The notes under the pieces: model-generated
Databases searched by the model: none
What the model was told of the DNA's origin: nothing
Seen by the model: only the letters and a program-made list of their open reading frames with translations
Shown: piece by piece, positions 32,027 through 54,009 of the stretch
Numbering within the stretch: the first letter of the stretch is position 1
Layout of the letters: each line of letters begins with the position of its first letter
Program-made: the position numbers and the translations under genes
Origin: Malassezia furfur
Lineage: Eukaryota
Direction: 5' to 3' (one strand)
Length of the DNA: 64,000 nt
Assembly: GCA_052055015.1 (NCBI GenBank)
Contig: JBQJIT010000011.1

Positions 32027-32072
32027 CGTGTCAAATTATAGAGCGTTGGAATGACTCCATGAAATCATTGTG

Positions 32073-32224: not shown

Positions 32225-32247
32225 TCCTTGGATTTCCAACATCAATC

Positions 32248-34259: not shown

Positions 34260-34313
34260 TGCATCTGCGCAATAGCCGTTGAAATACATTTCATCCTGCA
34301 TGAGAGTGACAGA

Positions 34314-34676: not shown

Positions 34677-34911
34677 CCTTGGACGGTCGGCGCTGGGCGG
34701 CTGGTGGAAAGAGCTGGGCTTGGTTCACGGGTTGTGTTGCTGACTGGCACTTTCAATTGCACAAATCCCCCCACGTCTTGCTCGACAGGTCGGTTGCACC
34801 CGGCACAGGACCACGTGATGCAGTTCTCCGCAGCGCGTTTTTGCAGAGGCCTAACAGGCAGCCGATCAGCTGGGCTGCGGCACCGACGCCCCTAGAAGTC
34901 GAAGATCCACC

Positions 34912-35448: not shown

Positions 35449-35519
35449 GCGGACCTACGATCTGCTTGACTGCGTAGGCTGTCGATAGACATGCCATATC
35501 CAAAATTCAATCCTACAGA

Positions 35520-36287: not shown

Positions 36288-36326
36288 GGCGGGGGAGGCG
36301 AAATTCGGCCCTTTTCCTCCACAATC

Positions 36327-37397
36327 ATGCCGGTGGCACAAAACGGTCCAAGCGCGGGCGTGGCGCCGGTCGTGCACGACCCAACGGAAGCACTCGCTCT
36401 GACACAGTATGGTAGCTGGTACCCCAAGCTTCGCAAGCACGCGCCAAAATCGACCGTGATCAATCTGGACGAGCTACAGCCCGAGTTTCTTACGTGGTTG
36501 GAAGAGGATGGGTTGGTGCTTGCGGATGCGAATGACGCGCGTGATGGCGCCACCCAGCGAGTGCCACGCAACGTCGAGCAGGAAGCACGCGAGGTCCTCT
36601 CCGATGACGAAGAGGACGAAGAGGATGCGCCACCGCAGTTCCCCGCGCTCAATGCGCGCGTTTTCGAGCTGATCGACCAGTACGGTCCAGTCTTCCCCAA
36701 GCTTAACTGGAGTGCGCCACTGGATGCCGCATGGATTCTGCCTGGCAACACGGTCCGTTGCCAGTCGCCCAACGATATCTATTTGCTGCTGAAGTCGTCT
36801 GATTTCGTCACCAAGGATCTCGAGCAGGTCAAGGAGCTGCAGGCGGCCTGTGCTGAGCGTGGCTTGAAAAAGCCGCACGTCGAGCTCGTGCTCAAAAAGT
36901 GGTTTGAGATGCCTCGGTCACACGAGTTCCGCGTATTCGTACGTGCGGGACGTATGATTGCCGTATCGCAGCGCGATGTGACCTTCTATGAACACCTCCA
37001 GAACGAGGCGACCCAGGACCAAATTTTGCGCCAGCTGCACGCCACCGTGGATCTGGTCAAAGATGCGATACCTCTCGCGGATTTGGTGATCGACGTGTAC
37101 CTCACACGAAATCTGGACAGCAGTTTTGTGATTGACTTGAACCCATTCCTTCCGCGCACGGACCCCCTGTTGTGGGCGTTTGAGGAGCTCGAAGAATGCG
37201 CCGAGGCGATGCGTGAGGACCCCACGCGTACTGTCCCACTTCGGATTTTGACGTCGCCTGCCCAGGCGTCTCAGTCGCAGCCGACCTATTCCTCCAACAT
37301 GATCCCGGCAGACGTGGTGGAGATTGGCTCTGGCCAAAACATCGCCGAGTTTGCCAAGGATTGGCAGCAGCAGCTTGCGTCGGCCGTACACGACTAG
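36327..37397 (+). CDS. CDC123: Cdc123 (eIF2 assembly ATP-grasp protein)
   Basis: VFPKLNWSAPLDAAW, DIYLLLKSSDFV, LVLKKW...EFRVFV, VIDLNPF..RTDPLLW. Confidence 0.93.
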   Translation: MPVAQNGPSAGVAPVVHDPTEALALTQYGSWYPKLRKHAPKSTVINLDELQPEFLTWLEEDGLVLADANDARDGATQRVPRNVEQEAREVLSDDEEDEEDAPPQFPALNARVFELIDQYGPVFPKLNWSAPLDAAWILPGNTVRCQSPNDIYLLLKSSDFVTKDLEQVKELQAACAERGLKKPHVELVLKKWFEMPRSHEFRVFVRAGRMIAVSQRDVTFYEHLQNEATQDQILRQLHATVDLVKDAIPLADLVIDVYLTRNLDSSFVIDLNPFLPRTDPLLWAFEELEECAEAMREDPTRTVPLRILTSPAQASQSQPTYSSNMIPADVVEIGSGQNIAEFAKDWQQQLASAVHD

Positions 37398-39013
37398 TAC
37401 CGCAGCCTGCCCTTCACACGCGGGAAGCCCACAATGTCGCGCACATTATCCATATGGGTCACCCAGCTCAAAAGCCGCTCCATGCCGAGGCCATAACCGC
37501 CATGGGGGGCACCACCGTACCGACGTAGATCTTCCTTGTACCATTGTAATGGACCCGACTCGGTATTCATGCCATTCGACTGCATGCGCGCATGCAGCAC
37601 CGCCTCGCGCTCTTCGCGCAAACTGCCCCCTGCCAGCTCGCCCATCTGGGGGACCAGTAGGTCAAAGCAGGCGACGGTCACTTGCTCTTCGCCTGCACGC
37701 CCGGGTGCCACCTCCTCCATGAGGCGCACCGGTTCTTCGTTCTCACGCATGTAAAACGGCTTTTGTGTGGATGGATAGTCGGTGACAAAAAGGGGCGTCC
37801 CCGCTTCGGCAGCAAGCCACCGCTCGTGCTCGGAACGCAGCGAGTCGCCCCACGTCGGCACCTCGCTGAATGCTTCTGGGTTGGCTTGAGCGTAAGCACG
37901 CACTTGCGCGACCGCTTCTGTATAGGTCATCCGCGGCCATGTGCGGTCCAAGCCGGCCTGCGCCCGGAGCGTGTCTGCGGGATGATCGGTACCCAGCAGC
38001 AGATGCATGTCCTGCACTGCACGCACACTGTGCCGATCTTGCGCATCGAGTCCGACGGCTGCCTTGACCATCTCTTTGACCATGGCCTCGACGCACGCCA
38101 TAACCATTTCGAGCCCGGAGGGTCCGCGCGGCACCCAGCAAAACTCGGCCTCGCACATCCAAAATTCAGCCAGATGCCGGTTGGTAGCTGAGCCTTCGGC
38201 GCGGAATGTGGGGCACAGCGCATACACGCGCGACAGACCCAAGGCAAAAGCTTCGAGATGCAATTGGGTCGAGACACTCAAGTAAGCGCCCTGGCCATTC
38301 CAAAACGCAGTGAGGTCTTCGGGCCGCGTCGGTTTGGTAGCGTCGATATCAGAATCGGCCACGACGCGGAAAATCTCGCCGCCTCCTTCACAATCCGAGG
38401 AGGTGATAATGGGCGGATACATTTTGGTAAAGTCTTCGCGTGCGAACCACGCGTCCATGGCGCGCTCCATGCGCGCGCGCGTGCGAGAGAGTGCGCCGTA
38501 GTGTACCGTGCGTGCCTTGAAATGTGATTCACGGCGTACGATGTCGGCCGCTTGCTCGTGCACGGTCTCGCCGCGGTCAGAGACGTGCATCAAGTGAGCG
38601 AGCGGATAGGTGGCCAGCTCGCTGTCGGCCAGCACTTGGTACTCGTCGACGTGCAGCTCGACTTGCTGGCTCTGCTTCTTCCCCCTGCCTGGGCGCATGT
38701 GTCCCGTCAAGCGCAAGGCGACACCCGGCGCAATGCCGCTAGCTTCACCGGTCAACATAGCCTGCAGCGTTGCTCCGCCACCCATGGTGCCATCCGTAAG
38801 CTCGAGGAACGTGCGTGTCTTTTGCCGGCGCATGGAGGCGACCCACGCACTCGCTTCGACGGGCCGATCAAGCGAAGCATCCGCTGCCGCCTCCGCCTCA
38901 TGAACAATTTTGGACAGTGTCGGGGCCATTGCGCGATGCACCGAGCGCAAACTCGTCAGGCCCGCGCGGCGGCGCGCCGCGAGAGCCACCGCGGCCTTCC
39001 AGCCAGCGAACAT
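37394..39013 (-). CDS. SLM5: Mitochondrial asparaginyl-tRNA synthetase
   Basis: Presequence-like N-terminus; SSDCEGGGE, YLSVSTQLHLE, FRAE...RHLAEFWMCEAE, KPFYM, FDLL...GELAGGSLREER, PHGGYGLGMERL. Confidence 0.93.
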   Translation of the reverse strand: MFAGWKAAVALAARRRAGLTSLRSVHRAMAPTLSKIVHEAEAAADASLDRPVEASAWVASMRRQKTRTFLELTDGTMGGGATLQAMLTGEASGIAPGVALRLTGHMRPGRGKKQSQQVELHVDEYQVLADSELATYPLAHLMHVSDRGETVHEQAADIVRRESHFKARTVHYGALSRTRARMERAMDAWFAREDFTKMYPPIITSSDCEGGGEIFRVVADSDIDATKPTRPEDLTAFWNGQGAYLSVSTQLHLEAFALGLSRVYALCPTFRAEGSATNRHLAEFWMCEAEFCWVPRGPSGLEMVMACVEAMVKEMVKAAVGLDAQDRHSVRAVQDMHLLLGTDHPADTLRAQAGLDRTWPRMTYTEAVAQVRAYAQANPEAFSEVPTWGDSLRSEHERWLAAEAGTPLFVTDYPSTQKPFYMRENEEPVRLMEEVAPGRAGEEQVTVACFDLLVPQMGELAGGSLREEREAVLHARMQSNGMNTESGPLQWYKEDLRRYGGAPHGGYGLGMERLLSWVTHMDNVRDIVGFPRVKGRLRY

Positions 39014-39047
39014 GAATGTGGAGGATATAGGTGGAGGGAGGGGCTAC

Positions 39048-40781
39048 CTACTTTTGGGCTGCGGTGCGGCGGCGAAGCCAGTCGATCATCTTGAGATGGA
39101 GCGCTGGCTTGTGCTTCTTGTGGCGGGCCATCACATCAACAAGCTCGTGCGGCTCCATGACATAAGATCCAGCTGCTGGATGGCTGCCCTCCACCAGTGC
39201 CTCGCACTCGGCCTCGCTCGGGAGCGCCCAGACGTTGTACGACGGGTTCCAGCGCAACGGGCCGACACCGCGCAGCTCCGCGTCCCGCTTCTTGCGGTAC
39301 TCGCGCGTGTTGGGAACCGGGGGAATGTCAAGCTTCGGCACATGCAGCTGCAGGCCCGCCTTGCGTGCGTCCTCGACCGTGCCGAAGCACAGCTTCTCCA
39401 GTTGCGCATGGTCGACCTCTTCGAGTGTCGCCGGACTCCACGGCGCACGGCCCGTGCGGCGCTTGCCCGTCTCGGGGTCCTTGGTGAGTGTGTGCTTGAC
39501 ACCCGTGTAGAAGTCACGGCCCAGGGATAGGTCGCAAAAGACGGTACAAATGTGGATGTTTTCGTGGATGATCTCCAAGAGCGGCATCTTGCTCGCACGC
39601 TGCATCTCGCGGAACGTGACGATCAGGCCACGCGGCGAGCGCATGTTGAGCTCGTCGAGGGTGGTCTTAGCAAACGTCTGCACCTCAGGCGAAATGATAT
39701 CGAGCCCGCGCTTGGCAAGCTCCTTGAGCGTGTACGAGTCCTGGCGCTTCTCAGCGACGTCCTTGAGCGATGCCATGATCTGCTCCACGCTGTCACGGCC
39801 GAAGCAGAAGTCCATTACGACACGGCGATCACCGAGGAACACCGAGTTGCGCACGAGCTCGGCGCCGTTCTCGGTGTCTCCCGCAAACGGATCCGAGGCA
39901 AACTCGTCAATCACGTCATTGACGACACTGCCGCTGTTCACAGACTCGACCGGCAGCGTGCCGAGACGCTGGGCGAGGTCGTCCAGCAAATTCGAGCGGA
40001 CGTAGTGCGTCGCAAGGCCCAGCAGGTACGTATCAGCGCCGTTGAGACGGTTGCCCGTCAGCGCAAGGTACATGCCCGTGTTTCCGTCCAGGCGCGAGTA
40101 GACGTAGGTCACACCGGCGTCGGGGTAGTAACCAATCGACACCTCGGGCATGGCATACATGGTGCGCTCGGTAACCACGCGGAACGGCGCATTGGCCGAA
40201 ATGCCAATACCACCGCCCATGGTGATCCCATCCATGAAGCTGATGTAGTACTTCATGCGGCCCTGGGAAGCCGTCAGATTCTCAAAGTTGGCGACGTTCC
40301 AGTTCTCCTTGAGCTCGGCGGTAAAGAAGGAAGTAGAGCGCTCGCGCATCTGCATGCTCTGCTCGTTCGCTGCATCGACGACCACCATGATATCGCCACC
40401 GGCACACAGTGCACGGCCCTCGCCGCGGAGGATGACCGTCGCACAGTTCGGCGACTCGGCCGTGGCTTTCAGGCACTTGCCGAATTCCACGACCATCTCC
40501 TCGTTCATCGCGTTCAGCGCCTTGGGACGGTTGAGGCGGATGGTGCGCGCGCTACCGTCCTTGAGTAGCTGCACAAGACCGTTCATGTGCCCATCGACGG
40601 GCACCTCGGTCGCGGTTTCGCGCGGCGCGGAAGACGACATGTGACGTGCAATGGAGTTCATTCGCTCTGCGGTGCGCTGCGATGCAGCCCGGTAGGTCAT
40701 AGAGCTCCGGGGCACTTGCGAGGTCAGTGGGCGAGACAAGGCCGACACGGATCTCGCGGCCAACGGCACACGGAGGGGCAT
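39048..40781 (-). CDS. EHD3: 3-hydroxyisobutyryl-CoA hydrolase family protein (Ehd3/mS47), mitochondrial
   Basis: LNRPKALNA, RALCAGGD, MDGITMGGGIG, AMPEVSIGYYPDAG, DFYTGV. ATG at 40781 chosen for its presequence-like start. Confidence 0.9.
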   Translation of the reverse strand: MPLRVPLAARSVSALSRPLTSQVPRSSMTYRAASQRTAERMNSIARHMSSSAPRETATEVPVDGHMNGLVQLLKDGSARTIRLNRPKALNAMNEEMVVEFGKCLKATAESPNCATVILRGEGRALCAGGDIMVVVDAANEQSMQMRERSTSFFTAELKENWNVANFENLTASQGRMKYYISFMDGITMGGGIGISANAPFRVVTERTMYAMPEVSIGYYPDAGVTYVYSRLDGNTGMYLALTGNRLNGADTYLLGLATHYVRSNLLDDLAQRLGTLPVESVNSGSVVNDVIDEFASDPFAGDTENGAELVRNSVFLGDRRVVMDFCFGRDSVEQIMASLKDVAEKRQDSYTLKELAKRGLDIISPEVQTFAKTTLDELNMRSPRGLIVTFREMQRASKMPLLEIIHENIHICTVFCDLSLGRDFYTGVKHTLTKDPETGKRRTGRAPWSPATLEEVDHAQLEKLCFGTVEDARKAGLQLHVPKLDIPPVPNTREYRKKRDAELRGVGPLRWNPSYNVWALPSEAECEALVEGSHPAAGSYVMEPHELVDVMARHKKHKPALHLKMIDWLRRRTAAQK

Positions 40782-40902
40782 GGTCGAAAGAGCACGATTG
40801 TGCGCCACGGCCAAGGGTTTTTTTGCTTAATCAGCGAGGCCAGCGCTCACTTCCGCTGAGTCAGCGAGCCTAGCACGGACGTGGCAGCTGTGAACATCGA
40901 TC

Positions 40903-41428
<526 letters not shown>

Positions 41429-41441
41429 GATGTCTACAGTG

Positions 41442-42956
41442 CTACTGCGGCGAAAGCAGGTTTTTGATATTGTCAAGCATCTGCACATCCTTGTGCGTGG
41501 ACGGCGCGTCGCGTTTCCGCTTCTGGAAGCGCTGACGCTTGCCACCGCGGTTGGTGTTCGCCGCACGGCCGTTGCGCGCCAGTGCGCCGAACAGAGAACC
41601 CGTGTCGGCGTTTCCGGCGCGCAGCGGGTGCGCTGCAGCGCCGTGCCGCCCGTTTTGTGCCTTGTCCTCGCTCGCAGGGTCGTTCACCCAGCGCGGCGTG
41701 CCGGGCAACGCCGGCGTGGAGTCCGGCGACCGGCGCAACGCCATCAGCTGCGACCGGACGTAGCCCAGCTCCGGCTCGGTGGCTGCCACGTTGGGCGGCG
41801 TGCGGCGCGTCGCGTGCGGGGCGGCCTGAAGGTCAAGGTACGCGTGCAGCACACGGAAGTAACCCGCGCCGCGGTTCGGCTTGGCACGCGTGTAGTCCAC
41901 CACGTCCAGACCCTGACGGTGCTGCAGAGGCAGGTGCGCAATGTGGCCGCCTGCCGCGACGGCCAGGCCGGCGTCGGCGCCGACAAAGTAGCGGCTGCGC
42001 CGCGCGTCCTCGACGCGACTTACGGCGTGGCCCTGGATCGGCTCGGCGAGCAGGTGCGTGTACACACTGTCCGGCTGCGAGTACTGCAGACCGTGCAGCG
42101 GGTGCAGCGCAGCGGCATGCGCCGGCGTCGCAATCGCCTTGCTCTGCGGCGCGTCCGTCCGCGCCTGCGCGCGCGCCTTGAAAAAGGACGCAGCACTCTG
42201 CGGCGCGTGCGGGAGACGCGCCTCGTCCCAGAGATCCACCGCGGGCGTGTCGATGTTGGCGCATGCGGCGGCGTACTCCTCCTCGCTCACCACCGCCGAC
42301 GCCTGCTCCTTGGCGCGCTTGCGCGCAAGCTGCTCGAGCGCCGCGTGCTCTGCCGCGGCCTGGCGCTGCGCACGCAGTGCCGCACGGAACTTGGGGCGCT
42401 GGCGCCGCACCGTGTCGAGGAAGCGGTGGAATTCGCGCTCCGACATGGCGTTGTAGTTCGGCAGAATGTCGGGCATCGTCGCAAACTTGGCATGGTTTGT
42501 GCCCCAGACGACATGCGCGGGCGGCGCATCATCCGACATCGTCGCACGGTCGTAGGGCGTGCGTGGCCGCAACCCTTGCGCAGCGTTGGTGTCTTCCTCG
42601 CCGACGACGCTCGAAAGGCCGTCGCGCTTCGAGCGGTCGCTCAGCCGCGCGCCCGCCTCGTGCCAGCGCAGGCGAAAGAGCGGATCACGCTCGCTCTCGC
42701 GCCAGTCCGTCAGACCCTGCTTGGTGTCCAGGCCGTGCACCGTCGCGTAGCGCAGCGCGCCAGGGTACGGCGCGGGCGCCGGCATGTCGGGCGTCGAGTG
42801 CCACGACGACGGCATCGGGCGCTTCAGACCCCAGTCGCCACGCGCCGCATGTGCCGTCGGTGCAGTGTACACACGCGGCGTCTTCGGGTCGTACGTGCTC
42901 ACCCGCGTGCGCTGCAGCAGCCGCGAGAGCCGCGTCGGCGCTCCGGAGCTCGCCAT
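41442..42956 (-). CDS. MRP51: Mitochondrial small ribosomal subunit protein Mrp51 (bS1m)
   Basis: N-terminal LSRLLQRTRVSTYDP...RGDWGLKRP; later MSEREFHRFLDTVR and GLQYS motifs typical of fungal Mrp51. Confidence 0.8.
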   Translation of the reverse strand: MASSGAPTRLSRLLQRTRVSTYDPKTPRVYTAPTAHAARGDWGLKRPMPSSWHSTPDMPAPAPYPGALRYATVHGLDTKQGLTDWRESERDPLFRLRWHEAGARLSDRSKRDGLSSVVGEEDTNAAQGLRPRTPYDRATMSDDAPPAHVVWGTNHAKFATMPDILPNYNAMSEREFHRFLDTVRRQRPKFRAALRAQRQAAAEHAALEQLARKRAKEQASAVVSEEEYAAACANIDTPAVDLWDEARLPHAPQSAASFFKARAQARTDAPQSKAIATPAHAAALHPLHGLQYSQPDSVYTHLLAEPIQGHAVSRVEDARRSRYFVGADAGLAVAAGGHIAHLPLQHRQGLDVVDYTRAKPNRGAGYFRVLHAYLDLQAAPHATRRTPPNVAATEPELGYVRSQLMALRRSPDSTPALPGTPRWVNDPASEDKAQNGRHGAAAHPLRAGNADTGSLFGALARNGRAANTNRGGKRQRFQKRKRDAPSTHKDVQMLDNIKNLLSPQ

Positions 42957-43019
42957 GGTCGGTTGCGAAGGTCGGTCACGTGCTTTTTGGTTTTTCGCGC
43001 GGGTGCGCCGACCTACGTA

Positions 43020-43470
43020 GCTTGCCGGCGCGCCGGCACGTAGCGGCAACGCTGCGTGACAGCTGCGGCCTCTGGGCCGCAGTTCCTGTGCGCTGGCGAG
43101 AAGGAAGTTGGGCTCTAAAACCATCGTCTGGAGGGCAGGCACACGCCGCTCCATGATCCGGGGATGACCTGATGTCCACACATTTGTACGTTGGCACGCC
43201 AGCGCACGTTGCTGGAGGATCAAACTCGATCTACGCGAGGCACCTCACAGGAGCCGCTGAGCCAAGGGGCAGGCATACCCGCTTCGTGCGGGTCGGCCTG
43301 TTACATAAAGGCGTGTCTGACAGCAACGGTGTGCTGTGCACACTGACGAGGATAGCGATGCATAGTGAGAGGAAACGCCGCGGGCGGTATGAAAACACCC
43401 TAGGATGGAATCCAGTAGCTGCCACGCACGGCGGCGTGTGCTGTCTTGCATCCTTTCTCGAGGCAACAGG
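43020..43470. other. Unannotated hairpin-rich intergenic region (candidate ncRNA)
   Basis: Palindrome 43023-43038; hairpins 43039-43056 (GCAA tetraloop), 43063-43082 and 43270-43300. No credible ORF. Confidence 0.3.
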
Positions 43471-43479: not shown

Positions 43480-46400
43480 CTACGCAAGGCTACGCAGACC
43501 GGTCGCGAGCTTGCCGACCTCGCTGATCTGGCTGACGTGGCACAGCGAGCCCACAAACTCGGGGAGGTACTTGGCACCCGTCAGCGGGTCGTCCACCGCA
43601 CCGGCGCCGCCGTTGGGGATGAGCACGTGGCTCCCCGCACACACGACGTACACGGTTTCGTGCGTGGAGTACGACGGGATGGGCACCGCATCGCGCGGCT
43701 GCCGGTCGCTGAGGGAGAGGATCTGCTGCGCGACCTGCACAATCTTGGCGGGCGGGTTGAGTTCGAGCAGGCGGCGCGCAAAGTGGCCAGCCATGGCGAG
43801 GTTGCCGACGCGGCGCGCCTCCATCATCGCAATGCGCAGCGCGAGCATCTGGTGCTGCGGCTGCATCTGCACATGCGTAAACAGCGCCGCGAGTTCGACG
43901 TTGCGCGCGACGTTGTCTGGCTCGGTCGCGGCGAGCGCCCGGCGCTCCAGCTCGATCGAGATGCCGATGAGGTACTCGCGGCACTGTACAATCATCTCGG
44001 CGATCTCGACGGCCTCGCTGTCGTTCGCCGCGGGTGTCAGCACAAGCTTGTGCAGGAGCGTGCGGAAGAGGCCCTCGGCCTCCGGCAGCTTGTTGCCGCT
44101 CACGGCGCGGTACGCATCCTGCAGGTCGTGCGCCGCGAGGTGGCCCACCGCGAATGGCGTGGCGGGCAGCACACGGCTCAGCTCGCCCTCGCTCGCCTCG
44201 TTGTTGCGGCGCAGGTGGAGCAGGAGCGGCGGCGCACCCGGCGCGCCCGGCACCACGGCGCGCGCCGCGGCGTACACGCGCCACAGCAGCGGACGCAGCG
44301 GTGCAAAAGCCACAATGCCCGCCTGGCGCTGGAGCACCTGGAGCGCGGTGCTGAACGCGCCCGCCGCGACCAAATCCGCGGCCACGGGCGAATTGCGCAG
44401 CCAGTGTTCGCTCTCGGCACTGCCCGGTACGAGGCCCTCGAGTGCGTCGGGGTCGACGAGCGGGGCAATCTGCTCGCCGAGCTCCTCCTCGGCCGGGGCG
44501 ACGCTCGCCTCCTGCAGACCCCATGCGTCGTCACCGAGGTCGAGCGCACTTGCGTCCGGCGCGACGTCCTCCTCGGCGTCATGCAGCGCGTCGCCGTCGA
44601 GCCACGAGTCGAGGTCGTGGCTCGGGCCATCCACGGCATTGTCCTCAAAGATCATGCCCGACTCGGCATTCTCCGCAAGGATCTGGTCGAAGTAGTTCTC
44701 CTGCGTCTCGACGAGCGGCCAGGTGTGCTGCGACGTCTCGGACACGACGAGCGGCAGACCGGGCGCGTCGGGCGCCGCGGGTGCCGCAGGCGGTGCACTA
44801 CCAATGTTGCGGTGGCGCGCGCCCACACTGGGACGCAGTGCCCGGCGCCGCGGGCTTGCGAGGCGCATGAACCGCGCCGCCTCGCCGGCCGGCCGCGTAC
44901 CGATCGACGGGCGCGAACCGATCGACGGGCGCACGCAACGTGCCGGCGAGGGGTGCGCAGCCTTGCGTGCCTCGGGCGCCTTGTCCGGCACATGTGCGCC
45001 CATCGCCTGTTGCAAGGCCGCCGCGCCCCGCTCGCCAGCGGTGCGCAGCTCGGTAGCAAGTGCGGCACGGTCCTCGTCGCCGAGGTCGTCGTCCAGACGT
45101 TCCGCGGCGGCGCGCAGCGTCTGCGTCGTGTGCGCCGTCCCAAGCGCCAGATCGATCAGGCGGCGCCCGATCGTGTCCTGCAGGAGCTGCCGCGCAGCCT
45201 GGAGCGCGGCGGTGCGCGCCTCGGCCGCGAGGTTCGCCTCGAGGTGCGCATGACGCGCCGCATAGAGCGCGGTGCTGGTCGCGTCGGCGGTGACCGCCGG
45301 CGGCAACGGAATGGGCGCGAGGCGGTAGGTATCTTCGGGTGGCGCAACCACATCAGGCGTCTGTGCGAGGAGCGACTCGAGAATCGCGCGGTCAGGCGCT
45401 GCACTCGCGGCCACCGCGGCGCTCAGAGCGCTGCGCACAGCCTCGGCGGCATGCAGCGGCGCCGCGTCGGTCGCGGCCTGCCGCAGCGCGTCACGCTGCA
45501 CCGCCGCCGCGTCCTGCAATTGTTGTGTGGCGTCCGCAAGCAGCGATTCACGCTTGCGCCGCTCGGCGGGGTTGTCTCCGCTGCTGGAACTCGCGAGCTT
45601 CTCCTTGAGTTCCTGCACCTCTTGGCGCAGCGACGCAATCGCCTGGACGTACTGCGCGACGTGCCGGTCAATGTGCAGCAGGTTGCGGGTGACCTTGGTC
45701 TGGATGTTCTTGGCCTGGTTGGCGTACTTGAGCGTGTTGTGGGTCTCTTCGTAGTGCGCGCTCGACGGCGACACACAAACGATCATCACCGTCTTGCAGT
45801 TTCCGCCCAGCGAGAACTTGAGCAGGCGCGTCAGCTTGCTGTTGCGGTACGGGATGTGCCGCCCCTTGGCGTTGCGTGCGCCACCCGTTTGGCACAGTGC
45901 GTTGATGCACGAGCCGAGCGCGAGGAGCGAGCGGTTGATGTTGGCGCCCTCCTTCATGCGCATGCCGTGGTTGTTCGTCGCCGACGCACGCTCCGAGCCG
46001 GCCAGGTCGATGATGTTGAGCGACGCACTGGTCATCTCTTCCACGGTGCCAGCCGTGCGCGGCTTGCGGGTGACGTTGAGCTGCAGCACGGCGTGCGAGC
46101 GGCTGCTCACGGCGTTGGCCTCCGTTGGGCTCTGCGTGCGCCGTTTGTTTCCCTCGGTGATCATCTCGAGTACCTGCTCGGGCGACTCGGGGATGTGTTC
46201 GGTGATGCCTACCACCGAAATCTTGCTCGCAGCGTCTTCGCGCAGCGCCAGCCCGGGGCCGGGCGGCGTCGGCGTCGGCGAGAGCAGGTCGCGGATCGTC
46301 TCGTTGTAGATCTCGAGGTACGATAGCCGCACATGCGTCTCAAACTGGTCGCGCTCCTCCTCGATTCGCTCGTACAGCCCACGCATCGTCAAAAAGATCA

Positions 46401-46910
46401 GGCCAGGGTCCTCGCTGCTCCCGCTGATCGTGTGCGTCTTGCCACATCCCGTCGCCTGCGTCAGTGGCACATACGTACACCATACGCAAACACACTTGCG
46501 TTGAACCCACTCAGCAGCCCGGTGAGCATCGGCTCGACCGTGCCGCGGTACACCTCCTGCTGCGTCGTCGTCGGGGGAAACACGCGGTCAAACGCGTACC
46601 GCACGTCGCGCGCTCGCCGACCGTTGCCGTGGATGTGCATATGCGTCGTTGCTTGTTGCTTCTGGCCCCGGATCTGTGCGGTGGGTTCCGCGGGATCAAA
46701 CACCAGCACACGGTCGTCCACGGGCGACAGAATGTTGCGGATGTAGTTAGTGCGCATCGCCGCAATCGCATTCTGCGCCTTGCTGGGCGATCCCGCCAGC
46801 CCTCCATCCCCCTGGAATGGCTGCGAGGTGTCTACTGGCGCAAGCAGCGACACCTCCCGCGCATTCAGGGGCCGAATTCGCACCGCGACCTGGATTGACG
46901 ACTCGGTCAT
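43480..46910 (-). CDS. Kinesin-8 (Kip3) motor and stalk fused in frame to the COPI alpha-subunit C-terminal domain; about 1135 aa
   Basis: MTESSIQVAVRIRP, YAFDRVF, FAYG|ATGCGKTHT (intron 46456-46478), SSRSHAVL, IIDLAGSERA, HIPYRNSKLTRLLKFSLGGNCKT, ETHNTLKYANQAKNI. From about 44757: WPL...ENYFD, HWLRNSPVAADLVAAGAF, CREYLIG, ELAALFTH, FARRLLE, VCAGS, KYLPEF.GSLC, EVGKLATGL. Confidence 0.85.
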
Positions 46911-46953: not shown

Positions 46954-47752
46954 TCACGTGACAAAGCGCACCAGGGGCACGCCTGCCGGCACGCGCGCGG
47001 CGTAGCGCGCGTATTCTTTGCCAAAGAAGCGGTGGAGGAGGTACTCTTCGTCTGCGTGAGCACGGCACGTACGTCGAATGCGCTGCGCAAAGAAGCGCGA
47101 GAGTGTACAAATAAACAGCAGTGTAGACACGGGGTTGCCCAGCAAAATCTGCGTCCCGACCGCCCAGTAGAAGAAGCCCGCGTACGAGGGGTGTCGCGCC
47201 AGCCGGTATACGCCGTGCGTCACCAGCACATGGTCGTCGCGCTTCGCGCTTGCGACCGTGTGGCTAAAGTTGGTGGATGCGTGCACCATCGCCAAAGACC
47301 GTATCATCTGCCCAAGCACGAGTAGCAGCACGCCGAGCACCTGCAGCGCACGGACCTGCTTCCAGTACGGCACGAATGCGCCTTCCACGAGGAACTCGAG
47401 CAGTCCAAATGCATGCGCGGCCGCATACTCGATGCCGTTTTGGAGTAGGAAGGCTGGGTGAGCACGCGCTATACGTACAGTCAGCTTGCAGGTGCGTCGC
47501 ATTCCAGTACGCAGTCACGAGAAACTCCAGCAAATGGAACAAGGTCCACGCAGCGAGGTAGAAATGCAGAGGAGGAGCCATGAGCAATGATTTCCATCCC
47601 TGCGTATTCCGTGCCCAGTCGACCAACAGCGCGACGGCCTGCGGCGCGCACAGACCAAATCCCACACCGAGCACGGCGGCGGTGAGCGCAACGTTGCCGA
47701 CAGGAGCAGCGACTTCGGCAGGTATCCGGATGGGGTGTGCGACGCGCAGCAT
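46954..47752 (-). CDS. STE14: Isoprenylcysteine carboxyl methyltransferase
   Basis: FHLLEF..TA, GQMIRSLAM...NFSH, HVLVTHGVY..ARHPSYAGFFYW, RI.|HEE..L..FFG.EY..Y. Introns 47454-47478 (25 nt) and 47052-47072 (21 nt). Confidence 0.95.
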
Positions 47753-47989
47753 GGTATCTAGACGAACCACAAGGACGTGGATACTACCGGACACGCTCCG
47801 CATCGTGCCGTCGTCGTCCTCCTTTCTCCCCCTCGCACACGTGGGAACAAAGAGAGCCACGTGGGAGCATGACGCGCGTCGTGCGCCAGGCCCTTCGGCA
47901 GGACAAAGGGCGTCGACGCGGCCCGTGCGAACCCGCGACGGCCGTAGAATGCATGTTGCTGTATCACTGTCAAACTACCAGCGACGTCA

Positions 47990-49096
47990 TTATGCCTCAA
48001 TCTCCCATGCAAGTTCCTGCCCGGCGTAGAACGGCACGACTTGCAGCTTCTGGCCATCGGCATCCGGCCGCTCCGTGTGCTTGTCGTGCACATACACCTC
48101 AGGCACCTTGTTCTTCACCCGGCGCAGCACGACCTTGCGCCCTTCACTGGCAGGCTCCTGATAGAATTTCCGCCCGTTCTCCGAGACAAACTTGGGCAGC
48201 TGCTCCAGCGCGCCGAACGATTCCAGCAGCGTAGCACACAGCGGCAGCAAAATGGGCGACGTGTAGATACCAGCCGCACATCCGCAGTTGTGAACGAGCG
48301 CCTCGGTCGAACCACGCGATGCGGGCGAGGGGTACTTGCTCGCAAGCGGGTGCGGCGCCGAGTCGGAACCCAGGAAGAAGCGGGGGTGGCCCTCGCGGAT
48401 CACGTCACGCAGCGCTGCACGGTCGTCCGGCAGCTTGGCGACCGGCTTGCAGAAGTTGATCGGACGGCCCGCCCAGTCATCCACAATGAGCTCCAAGTGG
48501 TGCGGCGTGATGGTGCATGCCACCGTGTCGCCAAGGCGCCGCACACAGTCCACAGCTGCGCGCGTCGTGGCGTGTTCCAGCACGATGCGCAGGCGGGGGA
48601 ACTGCTTGTGGATCTTTTCCAAGTGCGACAGGAACTGCGGCTCGGCATTCAGAACACAGATGCCTTTGTCAGCATCCGACGGAACCTCGCCGTGGAGATT
48701 GAGCACCATGTTCACCTCCTCCATGGCCTGGAAGACGGGGTAGTACACCTCGTAATCTTCGATCCCACTGTCACTGTTCGTTGTGACACCACGGGGGTAG
48801 CTCTTCACGCCGCGCACACCCGCCTTGGCTGCGCGCTTGATCTCCTCGGGGGTGAGGTCAGGGTGGAGATACAGCGTGCCTAGGAATTTGGTCTGCGGCG
48901 CAAGTTTTTGCAGCTGCTCAATGTACGCAACCGTCTGGTCCGACGACGTCAGCGGCGGCACCAGGTTAGGCATGACATACGCGAGGTCAATCCCCCCCTT
49001 GGCAACGTGAGGGGTGACCAGTTCGCTCATTTCTCCCTGGCGGAGATGCACATGGAAGTCGGCTGGCGACGGGATCGTCACACGGTCTCCACTCAT
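47990..49096 (-). CDS. URA4: Dihydroorotase
   Basis: DFHVHLRQG, VMPNLVPP, VKSYPRGVTTNS, LHGE, VLEH, FCKPVAK, FLGSDSAPH. In-frame upstream ATGs at 49159 and 49222. Confidence 0.96.
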   Translation of the reverse strand: MSGDRVTIPSPADFHVHLRQGEMSELVTPHVAKGGIDLAYVMPNLVPPLTSSDQTVAYIEQLQKLAPQTKFLGTLYLHPDLTPEEIKRAAKAGVRGVKSYPRGVTTNSDSGIEDYEVYYPVFQAMEEVNMVLNLHGEVPSDADKGICVLNAEPQFLSHLEKIHKQFPRLRIVLEHATTRAAVDCVRRLGDTVACTITPHHLELIVDDWAGRPINFCKPVAKLPDDRAALRDVIREGHPRFFLGSDSAPHPLASKYPSPASRGSTEALVHNCGCAAGIYTSPILLPLCATLLESFGALEQLPKFVSENGRKFYQEPASEGRKVVLRRVKNKVPEVYVHDKHTERPDADGQKLQVVPFYAGQELAWEIEA

Positions 49097-49511
49097 GGTG
49101 ATATGGAAGAAACGCGTGCTCCGGCGCTGCTCGCGCGAACAGGATACCTCCACATTCATGAGTCGCGTGCGGAGTCCGTACAAGGATGGCCTGGCACTCG
49201 CGCCTAGGAACCTCCAAAGCATCAGTAGCCTAGTGACCTGCGATGATCGAGGAAATTATCTACATTGCAATCCACAGCGCGGAAGTCGATTTGGTGCGCC
49301 TAGATCCACGTGGCCTGGCCCACTTCAACCCGTCTAGGGACAGGGCGTAAGTATGCGAGGAGAAATAGGTCCAGACAAAGTGTTGCTTTCCATTGCGTGT
49401 CCTCTGTTCACTTTGTAGACAGGCGCATTCATGGATTGCGCATAGCTTCTCATCCGTCCTGTACGTAGGACCTTGACACGCACGGGCCTCCCCCTCCACC
49501 CAATTCCACGG

Positions 49512-50588
49512 ATGCCCAACGACCAGGAAGCCCCACCTGCGTATGACGAAGTAGTGCACGAAGGCCTCGCCCAACACACGCAGGATCAGACCCCACAACA
49601 GTCGTTGTCCGTCCCCCCAATTCCTCCGCGGCCACTCAGCTCAGCAACCACTTCTTCTCAAGGGTCAGCGGCGCCATCGATCCCGTCTGCATCTATATCC
49701 GCTCAGGCGTCGCCACGCCCCCATTCCGCCTCGGCTTCATCTGGGCCTACCCCTGCTGGTCCTCTACCAACCACTCGCCCACAACATGGACATCCACTGC
49801 TTCACGACGGGAAAATCCTCGTATACCCGCGGAGCATGCCCCGCTGTGAAAAATGCGGAAACACGGGATACAAAGGAGGTGACCCTTCGCGTAAATGCTC
49901 GCGATGCTGGCGTAAATATGGGCGCATATACAGTGGTGCTTTGAAACAAGCCTATGAAGGCACTACGTCGCTTTCTTCGGTTTTAGCGGACAGCTCCCTG
50001 CAGCGGCCGCTTCCGATGCCAGTCACCAACATGTATCAGCCCTATGCGCGGCCTCCCCCCACGTTGTATGTGATGCCAACTGGCCAGCCTGCGGGTCCAC
50101 ATGGTGCACCGATGCAAAATACCTACTCGCCATATGCGCCTCGGCCCCCAGTTGCGCCTGGGGTCATGCCGGCTTCCCAGCCCCAAGCCGGACCCTCGAA
50201 TGCCCCCGAACGTTTCCCCGAAGACCAGCACAATTCTGCGCCGCCACTGTACGCACACGCAAGCAATACAGAAAAGCCGCTGCCTGAGCAGCAGTATCCA
50301 CAACAACAGGTACTGCAGCAAGCACCACAGCCCTACGGGAACCCGACGTTGCCGAGTAATTATGTGCAGCACCCACCACCAATCGGACCCACCATTAGCT
50401 GGTATGGGACTACGCCTCCAGCCGGTGCCATTCCCGTACTCCCTGGTGATCCGCGCATTGGCGGTGTGTTGTGTCCCGACTGCTACGGCTCTGGGACGTT
50501 GAACACGCTGTTGGACGCCTTTTTCGGTGGCATCGAGTGCCCTGGTTGCGGTGGAACAGGCCGGATCCTGCACGGTCGATTTGTCTAG
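49512..50588 (+). CDS. HUA1: Hua1-like proline-rich zinc-finger protein
   Basis: PPAY motif; CEKCGNTGYK...CSRCW; PGDPRIGGVLCPDCYGSG...CPGCGGTGR. Confidence 0.75.
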   Translation: MPNDQEAPPAYDEVVHEGLAQHTQDQTPQQSLSVPPIPPRPLSSATTSSQGSAAPSIPSASISAQASPRPHSASASSGPTPAGPLPTTRPQHGHPLLHDGKILVYPRSMPRCEKCGNTGYKGGDPSRKCSRCWRKYGRIYSGALKQAYEGTTSLSSVLADSSLQRPLPMPVTNMYQPYARPPPTLYVMPTGQPAGPHGAPMQNTYSPYAPRPPVAPGVMPASQPQAGPSNAPERFPEDQHNSAPPLYAHASNTEKPLPEQQYPQQQVLQQAPQPYGNPTLPSNYVQHPPPIGPTISWYGTTPPAGAIPVLPGDPRIGGVLCPDCYGSGTLNTLLDAFFGGIECPGCGGTGRILHGRFV

Positions 50589-52358
50589 CTACTTTCGGTA
50601 CTTCAATCGCTTGAAGTTGACTGGGTTAGTACACGTTGACGTACAATGTAGCTGCAGTACGCCGCGCTCAAAGGTGCAGCGGAATCCACGGCGGTGCGAG
50701 AATTCCCAAGCGCGATCCACAATGCGGAACGCAATGTCCTCATACGGCGGACCGGCGCTGAAGCGGAGGAGCACGGTATCGTCGGAATCCTCGCGCAGGA
50801 TTTTGTAGGTGGGAGGACGCGAAGAGTCGATCAGGTCGGGGTAGAAGATGTTGAACTTGTAGCCTTGCACCACCTTAGGCGGAGGATTTTCCGAGTCATA
50901 GTGGGTCTGGTTGTACCGATTCCATTCGTAGCCGGTATGCACGCGGTTGAAGTAGCGTGGCTTGCGTGGACGATACTTGTCGGCCCACTGGTATATCGGA
51001 TGCGACGGGAGCTGCACGTCCTGGTTGAACGTCTCCTCGGTAGCATCCACTTCGCGCTCGGCTTCCATACGGAATAGCTTGTCCTCGACGCTCTCGTTCT
51101 TATCCTCTTGCTTGGTCTGCGCCTGTGCCAACCGTGGTATAAATGCTGTGCGGAGCACACTGCGGCGCGCAGCCAGTAGAGCGGCCCACTGCGAAGCAAG
51201 CGTGACAATAGGCAGCTTCCGTTGGTCGTACGACAGGTTTTGCTCCTTTTCCGTGGGTGGTTCCATGTCTTCCGACCATGTGTCTTGCTCTTCCTTGGCG
51301 GGCCTGACCTCCTCGTTCACTTCGTGCGAAATCTCTTGCTGGTGCTGCTGCGCTTCGGCCCGTTGGCGCTGCTGGAGCTGTGCGCTCCGCTGCTTCTGTA
51401 CGAGTTCATGTACGTCGCGGAGCTTGGCAATACTGCGCCAAACAACAATCCGCCGCAGCAGTCCTTCCCAGTATTCCACATCCAAAGGCTCGCCAGAGCG
51501 CAACTTGGCGCGGATCTGGCGCTGGAGCTCAAGCAGTTCGTCAGCCGATTTGGAGGAAAGCATCGCATCCGTTTCGGCAAGGATGGACGCATCCACATGG
51601 GTACCTTCGGCATCGCCACGCACGGCACGTTGCTTGTCGTCGCAGACAATCAAGGCGTTGCGCCAGTATTCAACAGTGTCTGCGTCGCGCTCCAGCTTCA
51701 CAAACGACTGGATGTCACCATGGAGTTCTTCGAGCTCGGACGGCAACAGTTTCTCAATCACGTCGGGCGGCGCACGCAGGTCTGCATCAAGACCCGCCTC
51801 GTCGTCGTCGTCAGCAATCCGCTGCCGGTCCGGATTCGCCCACATCCAATTGAGCACCAACATATCGATCGGTTTGGCGCGGTTCTCACGCGTGCGGATT
51901 TTGGCGCGTAGCTTCATCTGCTCAAGTTGGAACTGGTCCTCCTTTGCCACCCATTCGGTCATCACGGCTGCGTCGCTGTTGCGCGCAGCATATGCGCGAT
52001 TTTCTTCGCGGGCTTTTCGCTCACGTTCTCTTTGTATGCGCCGTGCATTGAGCTGTTCAACTTCGCGCAGAGCTTCAGCACGTCGCTCTGCATTATAACG
52101 CTCTTTTTCTTCGGGCGAAATGCCGGCGTCGTGCTCTTGTGCCTCCTTTTTGTGCCAGTGAAATTTGTCATCGAGACCCGAGGGAGGCAGGTTGTCGGCG
52201 TGTGCCGCCCCAGACGACCCGCTGGAGTGGAAGCGCGACAGTCCTGTGGCCCTAGCTTCTCCTGTCTCGTTGCGTGCGCGTTTTGCATACCGATCGTCCC
52301 CACTTTCCACCGCATCGTGCCGCACGTCCCAACGAGACGCCCTGCCGAGGTCGCCCAT
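50589..52358 (-). CDS. Cactin (spliceosome-associated splicing factor)
   Basis: WVAKEDQFQLEQ...RAKIRTRENRAKPID, DVEYWE, WADKYRPRKPRYFNRVHTGYEWNRYNQTHYD.ENPPPKVVQGYKFNIFYPDL, AGPPYEDIAF. In-frame intron 50621-50644 restores LQLH|FNFKR. Confidence 0.95.
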   Translation of the reverse strand: MGDLGRASRWDVRHDAVESGDDRYAKRARNETGEARATGLSRFHSSGSSGAAHADNLPPSGLDDKFHWHKKEAQEHDAGISPEEKERYNAERRAEALREVEQLNARRIQRERERKAREENRAYAARNSDAAVMTEWVAKEDQFQLEQMKLRAKIRTRENRAKPIDMLVLNWMWANPDRQRIADDDDEAGLDADLRAPPDVIEKLLPSELEELHGDIQSFVKLERDADTVEYWRNALIVCDDKQRAVRGDAEGTHVDASILAETDAMLSSKSADELLELQRQIRAKLRSGEPLDVEYWEGLLRRIVVWRSIAKLRDVHELVQKQRSAQLQQRQRAEAQQHQQEISHEVNEEVRPAKEEQDTWSEDMEPPTEKEQNLSYDQRKLPIVTLASQWAALLAARRSVLRTAFIPRLAQAQTKQEDKNESVEDKLFRMEAEREVDATEETFNQDVQLPSHPIYQWADKYRPRKPRYFNRVHTGYEWNRYNQTHYDSENPPPKVVQGYKFNIFYPDLIDSSRPPTYKILREDSDDTVLLRFSAGPPYEDIAFRIVDRAWEFSHRRGFRCTFERGVLQLHCTSTCTNPVNFKRLKYRK

Positions 52359-52428
52359 GGTGGGGTCGTGTGGAGGAGAGCCTACTTGGACGTGCCGGGC
52401 ACCTCCGCGTTGGATCTTGGCCACGAAC

Positions 52429-53269
52429 ATGTCGCGAGGACCGGCACCCGACGCGTCTGCTGCATCCCCTCGGGATCTGCTGCAGTCGAGTGTGGGGAAA
52501 CCGCTGCGCCTAATTGTCTCGTACGACAGCTTCTCGGCGCCGAACTATGACGCTCATGAGAGTACGGCTGTGGGTCGGCTGTGGGCGTACGATCAGGGGT
52601 TGGACGTCGTGGTACTTGAGAACGGCAAGACGGGTGCGCTGCCCGCCGCACTGCGTCGTGCCGCTGCCTCTGCTTCGTACGACGTGCAGGGTCGCAGTGC
52701 ACCGCATGCCACGACTGGATTCAAGTTGGTGCAAGGCGCGCGCATTGTGCATGTGGACATTCTCACCGACGAAGAATATGCTAGCAGTCACAGTAACCGC
52801 ACGCTTTCTACTGTCGCCAACGTTCCCGTCGCTGCGATGGAGGCGCGTGATGCGGCCGCGACGAAGCGGTCCATGGAGCGCGCCCAGCAGATCGGTCCCG
52901 AAGAAGCGGGCGAGTTGGGCCAGGCGATCTTTGATGCGCTCAGCAAAACGTACGTGCTTTGCTGACCTCAGACTTCCCTGCAGATGGCACGAGTCGCATA
53001 TCATCGTCTTGGACGAAGTTGTGATTGTATGTCTACCAAGCTCACGCAGTCTGGCCCTGCGTACGATACCAATTCTACCTACGTCCCGAACTTGTCGCGC
53101 GAACAAATTGACAAATTGCTTGAGGGCGTGGAGCTGTCGCCAGAGGAGACGCCGAAAGTGGAACGCGCCCAGGCCAAGGCCCATACGTGGCAGCGCGTTA
53201 CGAAAGTGGTATGTATAAGCCGCGCTCACGCAGCTCGATGGTGTGCGCCGTAAGCTTGTAGCGCCGTAG
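52429..53269 (+). CDS. LSM12: Lsm12-like protein (Sm fold plus anticodon-binding domain)
   Basis: GRLWAYD...VVL, GQAIFDALSKT|LPCRW...IIVLDEVVI|..PAY, RVTKV|LDG.R. Introns 52950-52971, 53027-53049, 53209-53233. Confidence 0.82.
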
Positions 53270-53331
53270 TGAAATAGCGCGTGGAGCCACGTGGTTCTTG
53301 CCCAGGAATTGTCGCCTCCGACCTTGTCGCC

Positions 53332-53672
53332 ATGAGCTCGGTTCTGTCGAAAGCGTTCCCGTCTGCGGTGAAGGAGATCCGTCTGCACCTTTCGCCTGTT
53401 GGCGCAGGGAGTGCGGGTGCTCGGTATGTTCCGCGAACTAACCACAGGAAATTCCTCCAGAACAACTATCAGCTGATCAAGAAGAACAACCCGAACCTGC
53501 CGTTCCTTGTGCGTGAGGCAAAGGACACGCCGGCGCGCCTGTTCATGCGCCTTGGTACGTGAAACGATTTGAGGATTTGCTAACAACAGAGCGTGGCGCG
53601 GAGCGTTCTGCCGAGATCGACAGCCTTGAGCCGAATGCAATCGAGAAGAAGATTAAGGAGTTCTTGTCGTAA
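53332..53672 (+). CDS. Complex I accessory subunit NDUFA2/CI-B8 (L51/S25/CI-B8 fold)
   Basis: KEIRLHL...GSAGAR|KFL..NY..IKKNNPNLPFLVREA...PARL. Introns 53424-53447 (24 nt) and 53555-53589 (35 nt). Confidence 0.88.
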
Positions 53673-54009
53673 AGCGATACGTTCGCCCGGGTCCGGGCGT
53701 GCATACAGTCGAGATATGATGTCTTGGGTGTGTATATACGCAATATAGCGTAGACAGTCCCATGAACGAAGGTGCATCCCTACGACGGAGATTGCATTTT
53801 GAGCGCATGTCGAGAGATTTGAGCGAGTAACATGCTAACTACTGGTTTGTATACGCTGCATAGGTAGTGCAAGAACCGCGAGGGAATGTTTATCCGGCTG
53901 TACGCTGCAGATTCGTAGCTGTACAGAGGGCGTGCTGTGACCACACCTGTGCTTCAACGCCTCAGGTAAATTGGGCCAATTCCGCGGCTGAGATTACATA
54001 ACGGCAACC

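Follow-up and report, generated by a model that had tools for sequence, protein, structure and literature searches.

A fused KIP3-COP1 reading frame in a Malassezia furfur assembly as a probable breakpoint chimera of two separate genes

Malassezia furfur comprises two lineages about 10% diverged from each other, together with diploid hybrid lineages, as outlined in PMC9040865, and DNA-repair-mediated chromosome restructuring in a hybrid strain is attributed to a study cited in the Discussion of PMC13405305. Inversions of the MAT chromosome between species are described in PMC10410736, whose account of them places none at the KIP3/COP1 locus. We analyzed a stretch of M. furfur DNA of 64 kb (the window), free of N, in which a single reading frame combines parts of two genes: KIP3, encoding a kinesin-8 of the Kip3/Klp5/KIF18-19 group, and COP1 (RET1), encoding alpha-COP of the COPI coat. 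This locus resembles the chimeric genes found at structural-variant breakpoints in hybrid yeasts, in that each half corresponds to a separate intact gene, the two flanks are collinear with different loci, and a short in-phase microhomology (detected at the peptide level) and a haplotype switch lie exactly at the join. It differs in being known from assembled sequence alone, with the reciprocal junction not seen. Comparison of the sequences indicates that the fused ORF arose from a single joining of two M. furfur genes that normally stand apart, and that it is not an evolved fusion gene.

Structure and parentage of the fused reading frame

The fused ORF occupies 43480..46470 on the minus strand and encodes 996 amino acids with no internal stop. 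KIP3 exon 1 (46479..46910, minus strand) supplies a further 144 residues from an ATG at 46910, including the start of the motor; this exon is defined by a Pfam Kinesin match to 46494-46910 and by tblastn with the NCBI M. furfur Kip3 model, P0176. A 23-nt intron with GT..AG ends and a CTGAC branch-like site (46456..46478, minus strand) separates it from exon 2 (43480-46455, minus strand). Splicing joins FAYG to ATGCGKT, as in P0176, and the P-loop of the motor, GATGCGKT, reads across this junction. The KIP3-derived part of exon 2 (44761..46455, minus strand) contains the rest of the motor, the neck and coiled coil, and the start of the tail, ending in ...PAAPAAPDAP. The COP1-derived part (43480..44760, minus strand) follows directly, with the acidic linker and the whole C-terminal domain of alpha-COP and then the natural COP1 stop. 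The spliced product has 1135 residues, Kip3 1-709 followed by alpha-COP 807-1232.

Pfam identifies the kinesin motor domain (PF00225, 5.3e-88) at ORF residues 6-256, the motor start being supplied by exon 1, and in the same frame COPI_C (PF06957, 8.5e-79) at ORF residues 617-994, covering profile positions 32-399 of 405. The COP1-derived part also spans the solved alpha-COP C-terminal domain chains 3mkr_B and 3mv2_A. The initial annotation had described a stop-free frame with a 23-nt intron, a Kip3-type motor, and an alpha-COP C-terminal domain running to its natural end, and had proposed a Pfam check in which both domains should appear; all of this holds. It had placed the KIP3/COP1 junction at about 44757, near the position found here, between 44760 and 44761.

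ORF residues 1-570 agree with the normal 856-aa M. furfur Kip3 ORF at 569 of 570 positions, the lone difference being V/M at the start codon. Over these residues the KIP3-derived part of exon 2 is 100% identical to the Kip3 ORF products P0046 and P0178, and it is 99.8% identical to CBS 14141 Kip3 (P0176). Among the matches listed, the named closest relatives of the motor half are "tubulin-dependent ATPase kip3," "kinesin-like protein Klp5," and "kinesin family protein 18/19." The first 709 residues of the product are Kip3 itself, 99.8% identical to WFD46663.1, which is annotated as "tubulin-dependent ATPase kip3," with the same intron, P-loop, and STE14 neighbor, but the native tail after the coiled coil is replaced: the last 286 residues of Kip3 (a Pro/Ser/Ala-rich tail, P0046 571-856) are missing from the product and from the rest of the window.

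Similarly, ORF residues 571-996 correspond to alpha-COP 807-1232 (CBS9595_000631) and are identical at 426 of 426 positions to P0167 and P0175, the latter an intact 1232-aa alpha-COP on a 7.6-kb ENA contig. Public full-length copies with these alleles are intact without exception. COPI_C is complete in the fused ORF and the neighbors on the MRP51 side are normal, whereas alpha-COP residues 1-806, comprising the WD40 propellers, the second propeller (PF04053), and the TPR/solenoid, are missing from both ORF and window. Pfam detects neither PF00400 nor PF04053 in the ORF, and by tblastn the 1232-aa alpha-COP matches the window at 807-1232 only. With full-length alpha-COP and normal Kip3 as tblastn queries, no WD40 propellers and no Kip3 tail are found in the 64-kb window, where the two fused pieces are the sole matches.

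Gene order, lineage switch, and microhomology at the junction

KIP3 and COP1 lie on the same chromosome-sized contig in each of four reference Malassezia genomes (4/4), convergent and about 105 genes apart. Their protein accession numbers are separated by 105 in M. furfur CBS 14141, 109 in M. psittaci, 105 in M. yamatoensis, and 102 in M. cuniculi; the tandem arrangement in relatives that the initial annotation had considered is not seen in these four genomes. To the right of the fused ORF (46954..55398), locus tags, identities, and Pfam identify the normal KIP3 neighbors: STE14 (ORF part, 46954-47502), dihydroorotase (47990-49222), cactin (50589-52430), and pelota/DOM34 (54115-55398). Their tags CBS9595_000743, 744, and 748 climb with the window coordinate (742 > 743 > 744 > 748). 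To the left (14096..43223), the same kinds of evidence identify the genes that adjoin COP1 on its KIP3-ward side in the references: MRP51 (41442-43223; PF11709), enoyl-CoA hydratase (39048-40814), SLM5 (37394-39013), D123 (36279-37397), ACS1 (32248-34251), a homologue of CBS9595_000645 (23900-26194), and a helicase (14096-17644). MRP51 and STE14 had been named correctly from the start.

The left-flank tags CBS9595_000635, 640, 645, and 649 climb as the window coordinate drops, forming the KIP3-ward series 631 > 635 > 640 > 645 > 649. The left flank thus consists of the genes normally found between COP1 and KIP3 (CBS9595_000632-649) in reversed order, not of those beyond COP1. With the left flank reversed and the right flank forward, the junction is of the inversion type rather than a deletion. 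The collinear flanks, both free of N, are 44.7 kb and 19.2 kb long, and no centromere-like AT-rich stretch occurs in the window (minimum GC, 0.50).

The two flanks also differ in lineage: all tested left-flank alleles are of the CBS 9595 type and all tested right-flank alleles of the CBS 14141 type. On the left, identities to CBS 9595 versus CBS 14141 are 100% versus 97.4% for the COP1-derived part (P0167, residues 807-1232, versus P0166), 99.8% versus 94.2% for SLM5, 98.8% versus 95.4% for ACS1, and 93.7% versus 88.6% for the helicase, whose gene models differ. The homologue of 000645 is 99.1% identical to its CBS 9595 counterpart, and its 90% cluster has no CBS 14141 member. On the right, identities to CBS 14141 versus CBS 9595 are 100% versus 98.1% for dihydroorotase, 99.4% versus 93.4% for STE14, and 100% versus 96.5% for pelota; Kip3, at 99.8% to CBS 14141, has no CBS 9595 allele for comparison.

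The junction sits exactly at the end of a microhomology (44761..44778, minus strand; 18 nt) at which both genes are joined. Its peptide, AAPDAP, is the only hexapeptide common to normal Kip3 (P0046 565-570) and alpha-COP (P0167 801-806), and no 7-mer is shared. It falls in Ala/Pro-rich linkers of both genes, and the two copies form an inverted repeat whose nucleotide length, deduced from the codons, is 18 nt, with 20 nt as the upper limit. A second Kip3 allele, P0180, has AAPEAP at the corresponding site, so that the allele used in the fusion is the one that matches perfectly. The 18-mer encoding AAPDAP occurs once in the window, a local repeat search finds no longer repeat or palindrome at the junction beyond chance-level short matches. 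A degenerate pattern for the normal COP1 side, designed to retrieve the parental DNA, gave 0 matches. The position of the junction on the sole shared hexapeptide fits homology-directed joining rather than random ligation. Further, the microhomology is read in one codon phase in KIP3 and COP1 alike, which is why the frame stays open across the join; the open reading frame is an accident rather than a mark of selection, and we read the fused ORF as a breakpoint chimera peculiar to this assembly.

Explanations for the join

No kinesin+COPI_C architecture is found in 45 alpha-COP-side matches (0/45), among the 120 kinesin-side matches listed, or in the best 150 of 1.84 billion representatives, in agreement with the initial annotation, which knew of no such fusion; the recurrence in other genomes or strains that marks a conserved (Rosetta-stone type) fusion gene is thus absent from these searches. 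Three multi-stretch matches among the best 150 representatives proved by Pfam to be kinesins only; P0174, which at 993 aa is near the fused ORF in length and was examined as a candidate second fusion, is alpha-COP only. An exact look-up of the fused ORF in a collection of 15 billion proteins is negative, while two control ORFs with non-ATG starts are found there. A reciprocal COP1(N)-Kip3(tail) protein was not found in the protein collection, where all four Kip3-tail matches (4/4) are plain kinesins, and the junction 42-mer has 0 matches in JGI metagenome contigs.

Two explanations remain, both already raised by the initial annotation: a strain- or haplotype-specific rearrangement, which would here be of the inversion type and between two lineage haplotypes, and an assembly chimera. 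We favor a real, microhomology-mediated, inversion-type rearrangement in a hybrid-type genome, with a probability of roughly 0.5; that cells contain the join, and which repair pathway made it, is what we infer here. The long, collinear, N-free flanks and the lack of a longer repeat at the junction count for it; the repeats at which overlap or k-mer assemblers go wrong are normally far longer than the 18-20 nt deduced here. The lack of fused or reciprocal proteins in the searches, the intact public copies, and the absence of the 42-mer count against it. Joining homeologue to homeologue in this orientation would, moreover, yield a dicentric or acentric product, a difficulty that would be lifted if a centromere lay between KIP3 and COP1 or if the chromosome were already a P1/P2 mosaic.

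A technical origin is a serious competitor, to which we give somewhat less than an even chance. Here a sample with both M. furfur haplotypes would have given rise to the join in vitro, by polymerase template switching during amplification, or in silico, by a misjoin that may have come from a low-k de Bruijn step or from a chimeric long read used as backbone, and the cells would have only intact KIP3 and COP1. This origin would account for a fusion unique to the window, with no fused protein in any search and a negative exact look-up despite working controls, and for the inverted joining of two haplotypes, a topology awkward for a simple chromosome. The 100% identity of both halves to intact alleles gives no sign of age, and a homology-directed join at 18-20 nt is equally to be expected from a short k-mer overlap or from template switching. 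However, a match of this length is below the overlaps or k-mers of most current assemblers, misjoins that switch haplotype usually occur at allelic rather than ectopic inverted positions, and random ligation would not hit the single shared hexapeptide. The clean and collinear flanks on both sides likewise speak against a technical origin.

Very improbable, and largely refuted, is a functional kinesin-8/alpha-COP fusion shaped by evolution, in which alpha-COP might be divided between a WD40 part and a C-terminal domain borne by the motor; the initial annotation had offered it as a genuine chimera coupling a motor to COPI. The frame does remain open to the natural COP1 stop, KIP3 keeps its 5' end and its intron, and the break falls in flexible linkers of both proteins, leaving both folded modules whole. 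Against this, the in-frame state follows automatically from the in-phase microhomology, neither half has diverged from its intact parental allele, each of which is a separate gene, and the searches above return no other kinesin+COPI_C protein. A normal alpha-COP of 1232-1241 aa is present in eight named Malassezia strains or species (M. furfur CBS 9595, M. furfur CBS 14141, M. brasiliensis, M. psittaci, M. yamatoensis, M. cuniculi, M. vespertilionis, and Malassezia sp. CBS 17886). A simple in-frame deletion between KIP3 and COP1 as adjacent genes in tandem can practically be dismissed: both parts are contiguous and on the same window strand, but the genes are 102-109 accession numbers apart in all four references, the left flank holds the reversed inter-COP1/KIP3 genes, and deletion between convergent genes could not place both on one strand; of the strain- or haplotype-specific rearrangement under which the initial annotation had listed such a deletion, the inversion-type form survives.

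Proposed mechanism and meaning of the join

In the favored rearrangement, an inversion-type junction would connect the 5' 709 codons of KIP3, of the CBS 14141/P2 type, to the last 426 codons of COP1, of the CBS 9595/P1 type, in a genome with both haplotypes, that is, a hybrid or recombinant strain. DNA repair would make the join at AAPDAP, either by microhomology-mediated end joining or by microhomology-primed break-induced replication, and the shared codon phase would automatically put the product in frame. Transcription from the intact KIP3 promoter, if it occurs, would yield a kinesin-8 dimer that lacks its tail and bears the linker of alpha-COP together with its epsilon-COP-binding C-terminal domain. 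Such a predicted chimera would most probably be a by-product, either neutral or slightly harmful, with intact homeologous copies acting as a buffer.

We regard it as improbable that the join is both real and transcribed in hybrid M. furfur, giving a dimeric, tail-less kinesin-8 with a complete epsilon-COP-binding alpha-COP domain. If it were, the chimera could pull epsilon-COP, or contacts of the Dsl1 tether, to the plus ends of microtubules, or could instead titrate epsilon-COP away from coatomer; nature would then have tethered a motor to a coat, an experiment whose effect on the spindle or on Golgi-ER traffic could be measured. In any case, the apparent kinesin-COPI "fusion protein" is struck from the list of new architectures. 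If the join is technical, the analysis flags a misjoin that would carry a false fusion gene into annotation. If the junction is real, it would place with precision an inversion-type breakpoint between haplotypes, mediated by microhomology, in the hybrid-type genome of a human skin yeast, and would be a concrete case of post-hybridization restructuring in which one allele of an essential coat gene and one of a mitotic motor gene are broken.

Gene model and parentage of the two halves

The chimeric open reading frame (ORF), in which the front of a Kip3-type kinesin-8 is followed by the C-terminal part of alpha-COP, runs for 996 codons without a stop (43480..46470, minus strand). Exon 1 (46479-46910, minus strand) begins with the ATG at 46910 and encodes 144 aa; it is followed on the same strand by a 23-nt GT..AG intron (46456-46478) and by exon 2, which extends from 46455 down to the stop codon at 43480-43482. 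Removal of the intron restores the kinesin P-loop (FAYG joined to ATGCGKT), the same join as in the annotated M. furfur CBS 14141 Kip3 model P0176, and gives a predicted product of 1135 aa. Both expected Pfam domains are recovered in the single frame, Kinesin at 5.3e-88 and COPI_C at 8.5e-79 (profile positions 32-399 of 405). ORF reading and Pfam thus confirm, at these coordinates, the kinesin and alpha-COP frame that the initial annotation described after a 23-nt intron.

In the annotated P0176 (944 aa) the start is an internal Met corresponding to position 46757. An in-frame ATG lies further upstream in the window, at 46910 (46757-46910), and the product from there starts MTESSIQVAVRIRPLN, resembling the usual first strand of the kinesin motor; 51 N-terminal residues may therefore be missing from the public model.

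Searching proteins with the C-terminal part gave 45 matches, of which 44 are ordinary alpha-COPs, Malassezia closest, almost all with WD40 propellers, PF04053 and COPI_C. The remaining one, P0046, is a kinesin of 856 aa that matches only at the beginning of the query region. ORF residues 1-570 match residues 1-570 of P0046 at 569 of 570 positions, the sole mismatch being at the GTG start codon (V or M depending on how it is translated), and residues 571-996 give a gapless alignment with alpha-COP 807-1232. Among members of the two 90% clusters (Kip3 and alpha-COP), the COP1 part is identical at 426/426 positions to each of two full-length alpha-COPs, P0167 (M. furfur CBS 9595, CBS9595_000631) and P0175, with 97.4% identity to the CBS 14141 protein. 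For the Kip3 part, the Kip3 proteins P0178 and P0046 are identical and CBS 14141 Kip3 is 99.8% identical. Intact alleles identical to those of the window exist: normal Kip3 ORFs of this cluster lie on dozens of contigs, and P0175, with the same last 426 residues, is encoded on a 7.6-kb ENA contig.

As a whole protein, the chimera lacks a defining feature of each family. The motor half is Kip3 but without the Kip3 tail (286 further C-terminal residues), and the C-terminal half is alpha-COP without the WD40 propellers, 806 residues ahead of the join being absent; neither missing piece is found anywhere in the 64-kb window. The retained COP1 piece spans the entire region seen in 3mkr_B and 3mv2_A, solved chains of the alpha-COP C-terminal domain that were reportedly determined together with epsilon-COP.

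Lineage, gene order and the site of the join

The flanks differ in lineage. On the left, identity to the CBS 9595 type (P1) versus the CBS 14141 type (P2) is 100% versus 97.4% for COP1-C, 99.8% versus 94.2% for SLM5, 98.8% versus 95.4% for ACS1 and 93.7% versus 88.6% for a helicase whose gene models differ and which is also 100% identical to an ENA allele; the ORF matching CBS9595_000645 is 99.1% CBS 9595 type, its 90% cluster having no CBS 14141 member. On the right, the same comparison gives 98.1% versus 100% for dihydroorotase, 93.4% versus 99.4% for the second exon of STE14 and 96.5% versus 100% for pelota, and Kip3 is 99.8% CBS 14141 type with no CBS 9595 allele for comparison. A passage of PMC9040865 gives the genome similarity of the two lineages as ~89%. 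These per-gene identities indicate that a P1-type segment (1-44760) is joined to a P2-type segment (44761-64000), and hence that the source genome carries both haplotypes or a mosaic of them. The first diagnostic position is COP1 residue 917, and the switch falls between it and the KIP3/STE14 region, i.e., at or near the junction.

NCBI protein accession numbers and locus tags of cluster members served as a proxy for chromosomal order. COP1 and KIP3 share one chromosome-sized contig in each of four species, with accession differences of 105 in M. furfur CBS 14141 (WFD46768, WFD46663), 109 in M. psittaci (WFD41655, WFD41764), 105 in M. yamatoensis (WFC97574, WFC97679) and 102 in M. cuniculi (WFD33779, WFD33677), so the two genes are not neighbours. 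Exact look-up of window ORFs places COP1 (CBS9595_000631) at the junction, then, to its left, SLM5 (37394-39013, CBS9595_000635), ACS1 (32248-34251, CBS9595_000640), an unnamed ORF (23900-26194, CBS9595_000645) and the helicase (14096-17644, CBS9595_000649), and to the right STE14 (46954-47502, CBS9595_000743), dihydroorotase (47990-49222, CBS9595_000744) and pelota (54115-55398, CBS9595_000748). The left flank is thus the reversed COP1-to-KIP3 intervening DNA, and the right flank is DNA past KIP3. As the COP1 3' end points toward MRP51/632 and the KIP3 5' end toward STE14/743, the genes must be convergent in the references.

At the join, normal Kip3 reads PAAPAAPDAP followed by KDAKPS, normal alpha-COP reads AVSAAAPDAP followed by GLPLVV, and the window reads PAAPAAPDAP followed by GLPLVV. 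AAPDAP is the sole hexapeptide common to normal Kip3 and alpha-COP, which share no heptapeptide; it is encoded at 44761-44778 by an 18-mer found once in the window. Codon reasoning, which does not draw on parental DNA, suggests that nucleotide identity could reach at most 2 bases further 5' and none further 3'. Because the two genes have AAPDAP in identical codon phase, any exchange inside it stays in frame, and the open frame is therefore not evidence of selection. In the public Kip3 allele P0180 this site is AAPEAP, and 7 other tail positions also differ; the window allele is the one with the unbroken match. P0180 may be the P1-type Kip3 allele; the 90% cluster contains no CBS 9595 Kip3 protein. 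The geometry is that of one junction of an inversion between two AAPDAP-coding stretches, an inverted repeat in the reference.

Elsewhere in the window, GC is lowest at 20400-22300 (~0.50 versus 0.63-0.64 overall), within the interval 20164 to 22598, which separates long ORFs. A very long ORF of 3244 codons (3-9734, minus strand) runs past the left end. Two ORFs, at 49473-50588 (plus strand, 371 codons) and 52510-53640 (minus strand, 376 codons), match nothing in Pfam at E<=0.001 and are absent from the protein collection by exact look-up; they may be genes that lack annotation, or spurious frames of the GC-rich sequence.

Origin of the join and its consequences

The chimeric ORF is a breakpoint chimera confined to this assembly and not an evolved fusion gene. 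Of the four features that mark a rearrangement-breakpoint chimera it has three, the remaining one being read support. We put the probability that the join is a real rearrangement, in a genome with both haplotypes, at about 0.5. The join lies on the single common hexapeptide, and its flanks are long and clean (0 N) at a site without a longer repeat. In that case the 18-20-nt inverted microhomology would have served for DNA repair, via end joining or microhomology-primed replication. A statement in the Discussion of PMC13405305 describes a hybrid strain with DNA-repair-mediated chromosome restructuring, consistent with such an event.

A technical chimera, arising by template switching or by a short-k or chimeric-read misjoin, is a substantial possibility at somewhat under even odds. 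The fusion is seen in this window only, the join is inverted and across two haplotypes, and both halves lack divergence from the parental alleles. Further, a direct homeologue join would be dicentric or acentric unless KIP3 and COP1 flank the centromere or the chromosome was already mosaic; the 64-kb window contains no centromere-like AT-rich DNA.

An evolved, functional motor-COPI fusion, as the initial annotation had also considered, is very improbable: the halves match intact alleles, and the architecture was not found elsewhere. Kinesin and COPI_C occur together in 0 of the 45 COP1-side matches, and COPI_C in none of the 120 kinesin-side matches listed. In a phmmer search of the 996-aa ORF against 1.84 billion cluster representatives, alpha-COP (residues 558-996 only) and plain kinesins lead the ranking, ahead of both of which a true fusion would be expected; in the three matches that align over more than one stretch, Pfam finds kinesin only. 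By exact look-up the ORF is absent from a 15-billion-protein collection in which one GTG-start and one TTG-start window ORF, used as positive controls, were both found. The Kip3 tail, used to seek the reciprocal product, retrieved four proteins, all kinesins, and the junction 42-mer is absent from JGI metagenome contigs. The ORF does not behave as a conserved fusion.

An in-frame deletion between tandem KIP3 and COP1, also proposed earlier, can be practically discounted, being incompatible with the flank geometry: the genes are non-adjacent in 4/4 references and the flank order is reversed.

If the rearrangement is real, the chimeric gene keeps intact the promoter and start codon of KIP3, its intron, and the motor and coiled-coil regions; translation would terminate at the stop codon of COP1, downstream of which lies that gene's own 3' region. 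The encoded protein would form a kinesin-8 dimer without its tail, which in Kip3 gives a second microtubule-binding site and plus-end residence; the tail would be replaced by the acidic linker and C-terminal domain of alpha-COP, the epsilon-COP-binding part. In a diploid hybrid, essential functions would be covered by the intact KIP3 and COP1 of the other haplotype, and the chimera would most likely be neutral, or mildly dominant-negative for epsilon-COP or Kip3 dimers. The chimera is thus either a misassembly, in which case it should not be annotated as a gene, or a structural-variant junction in hybrid-type M. furfur DNA that is well resolved and possibly real.
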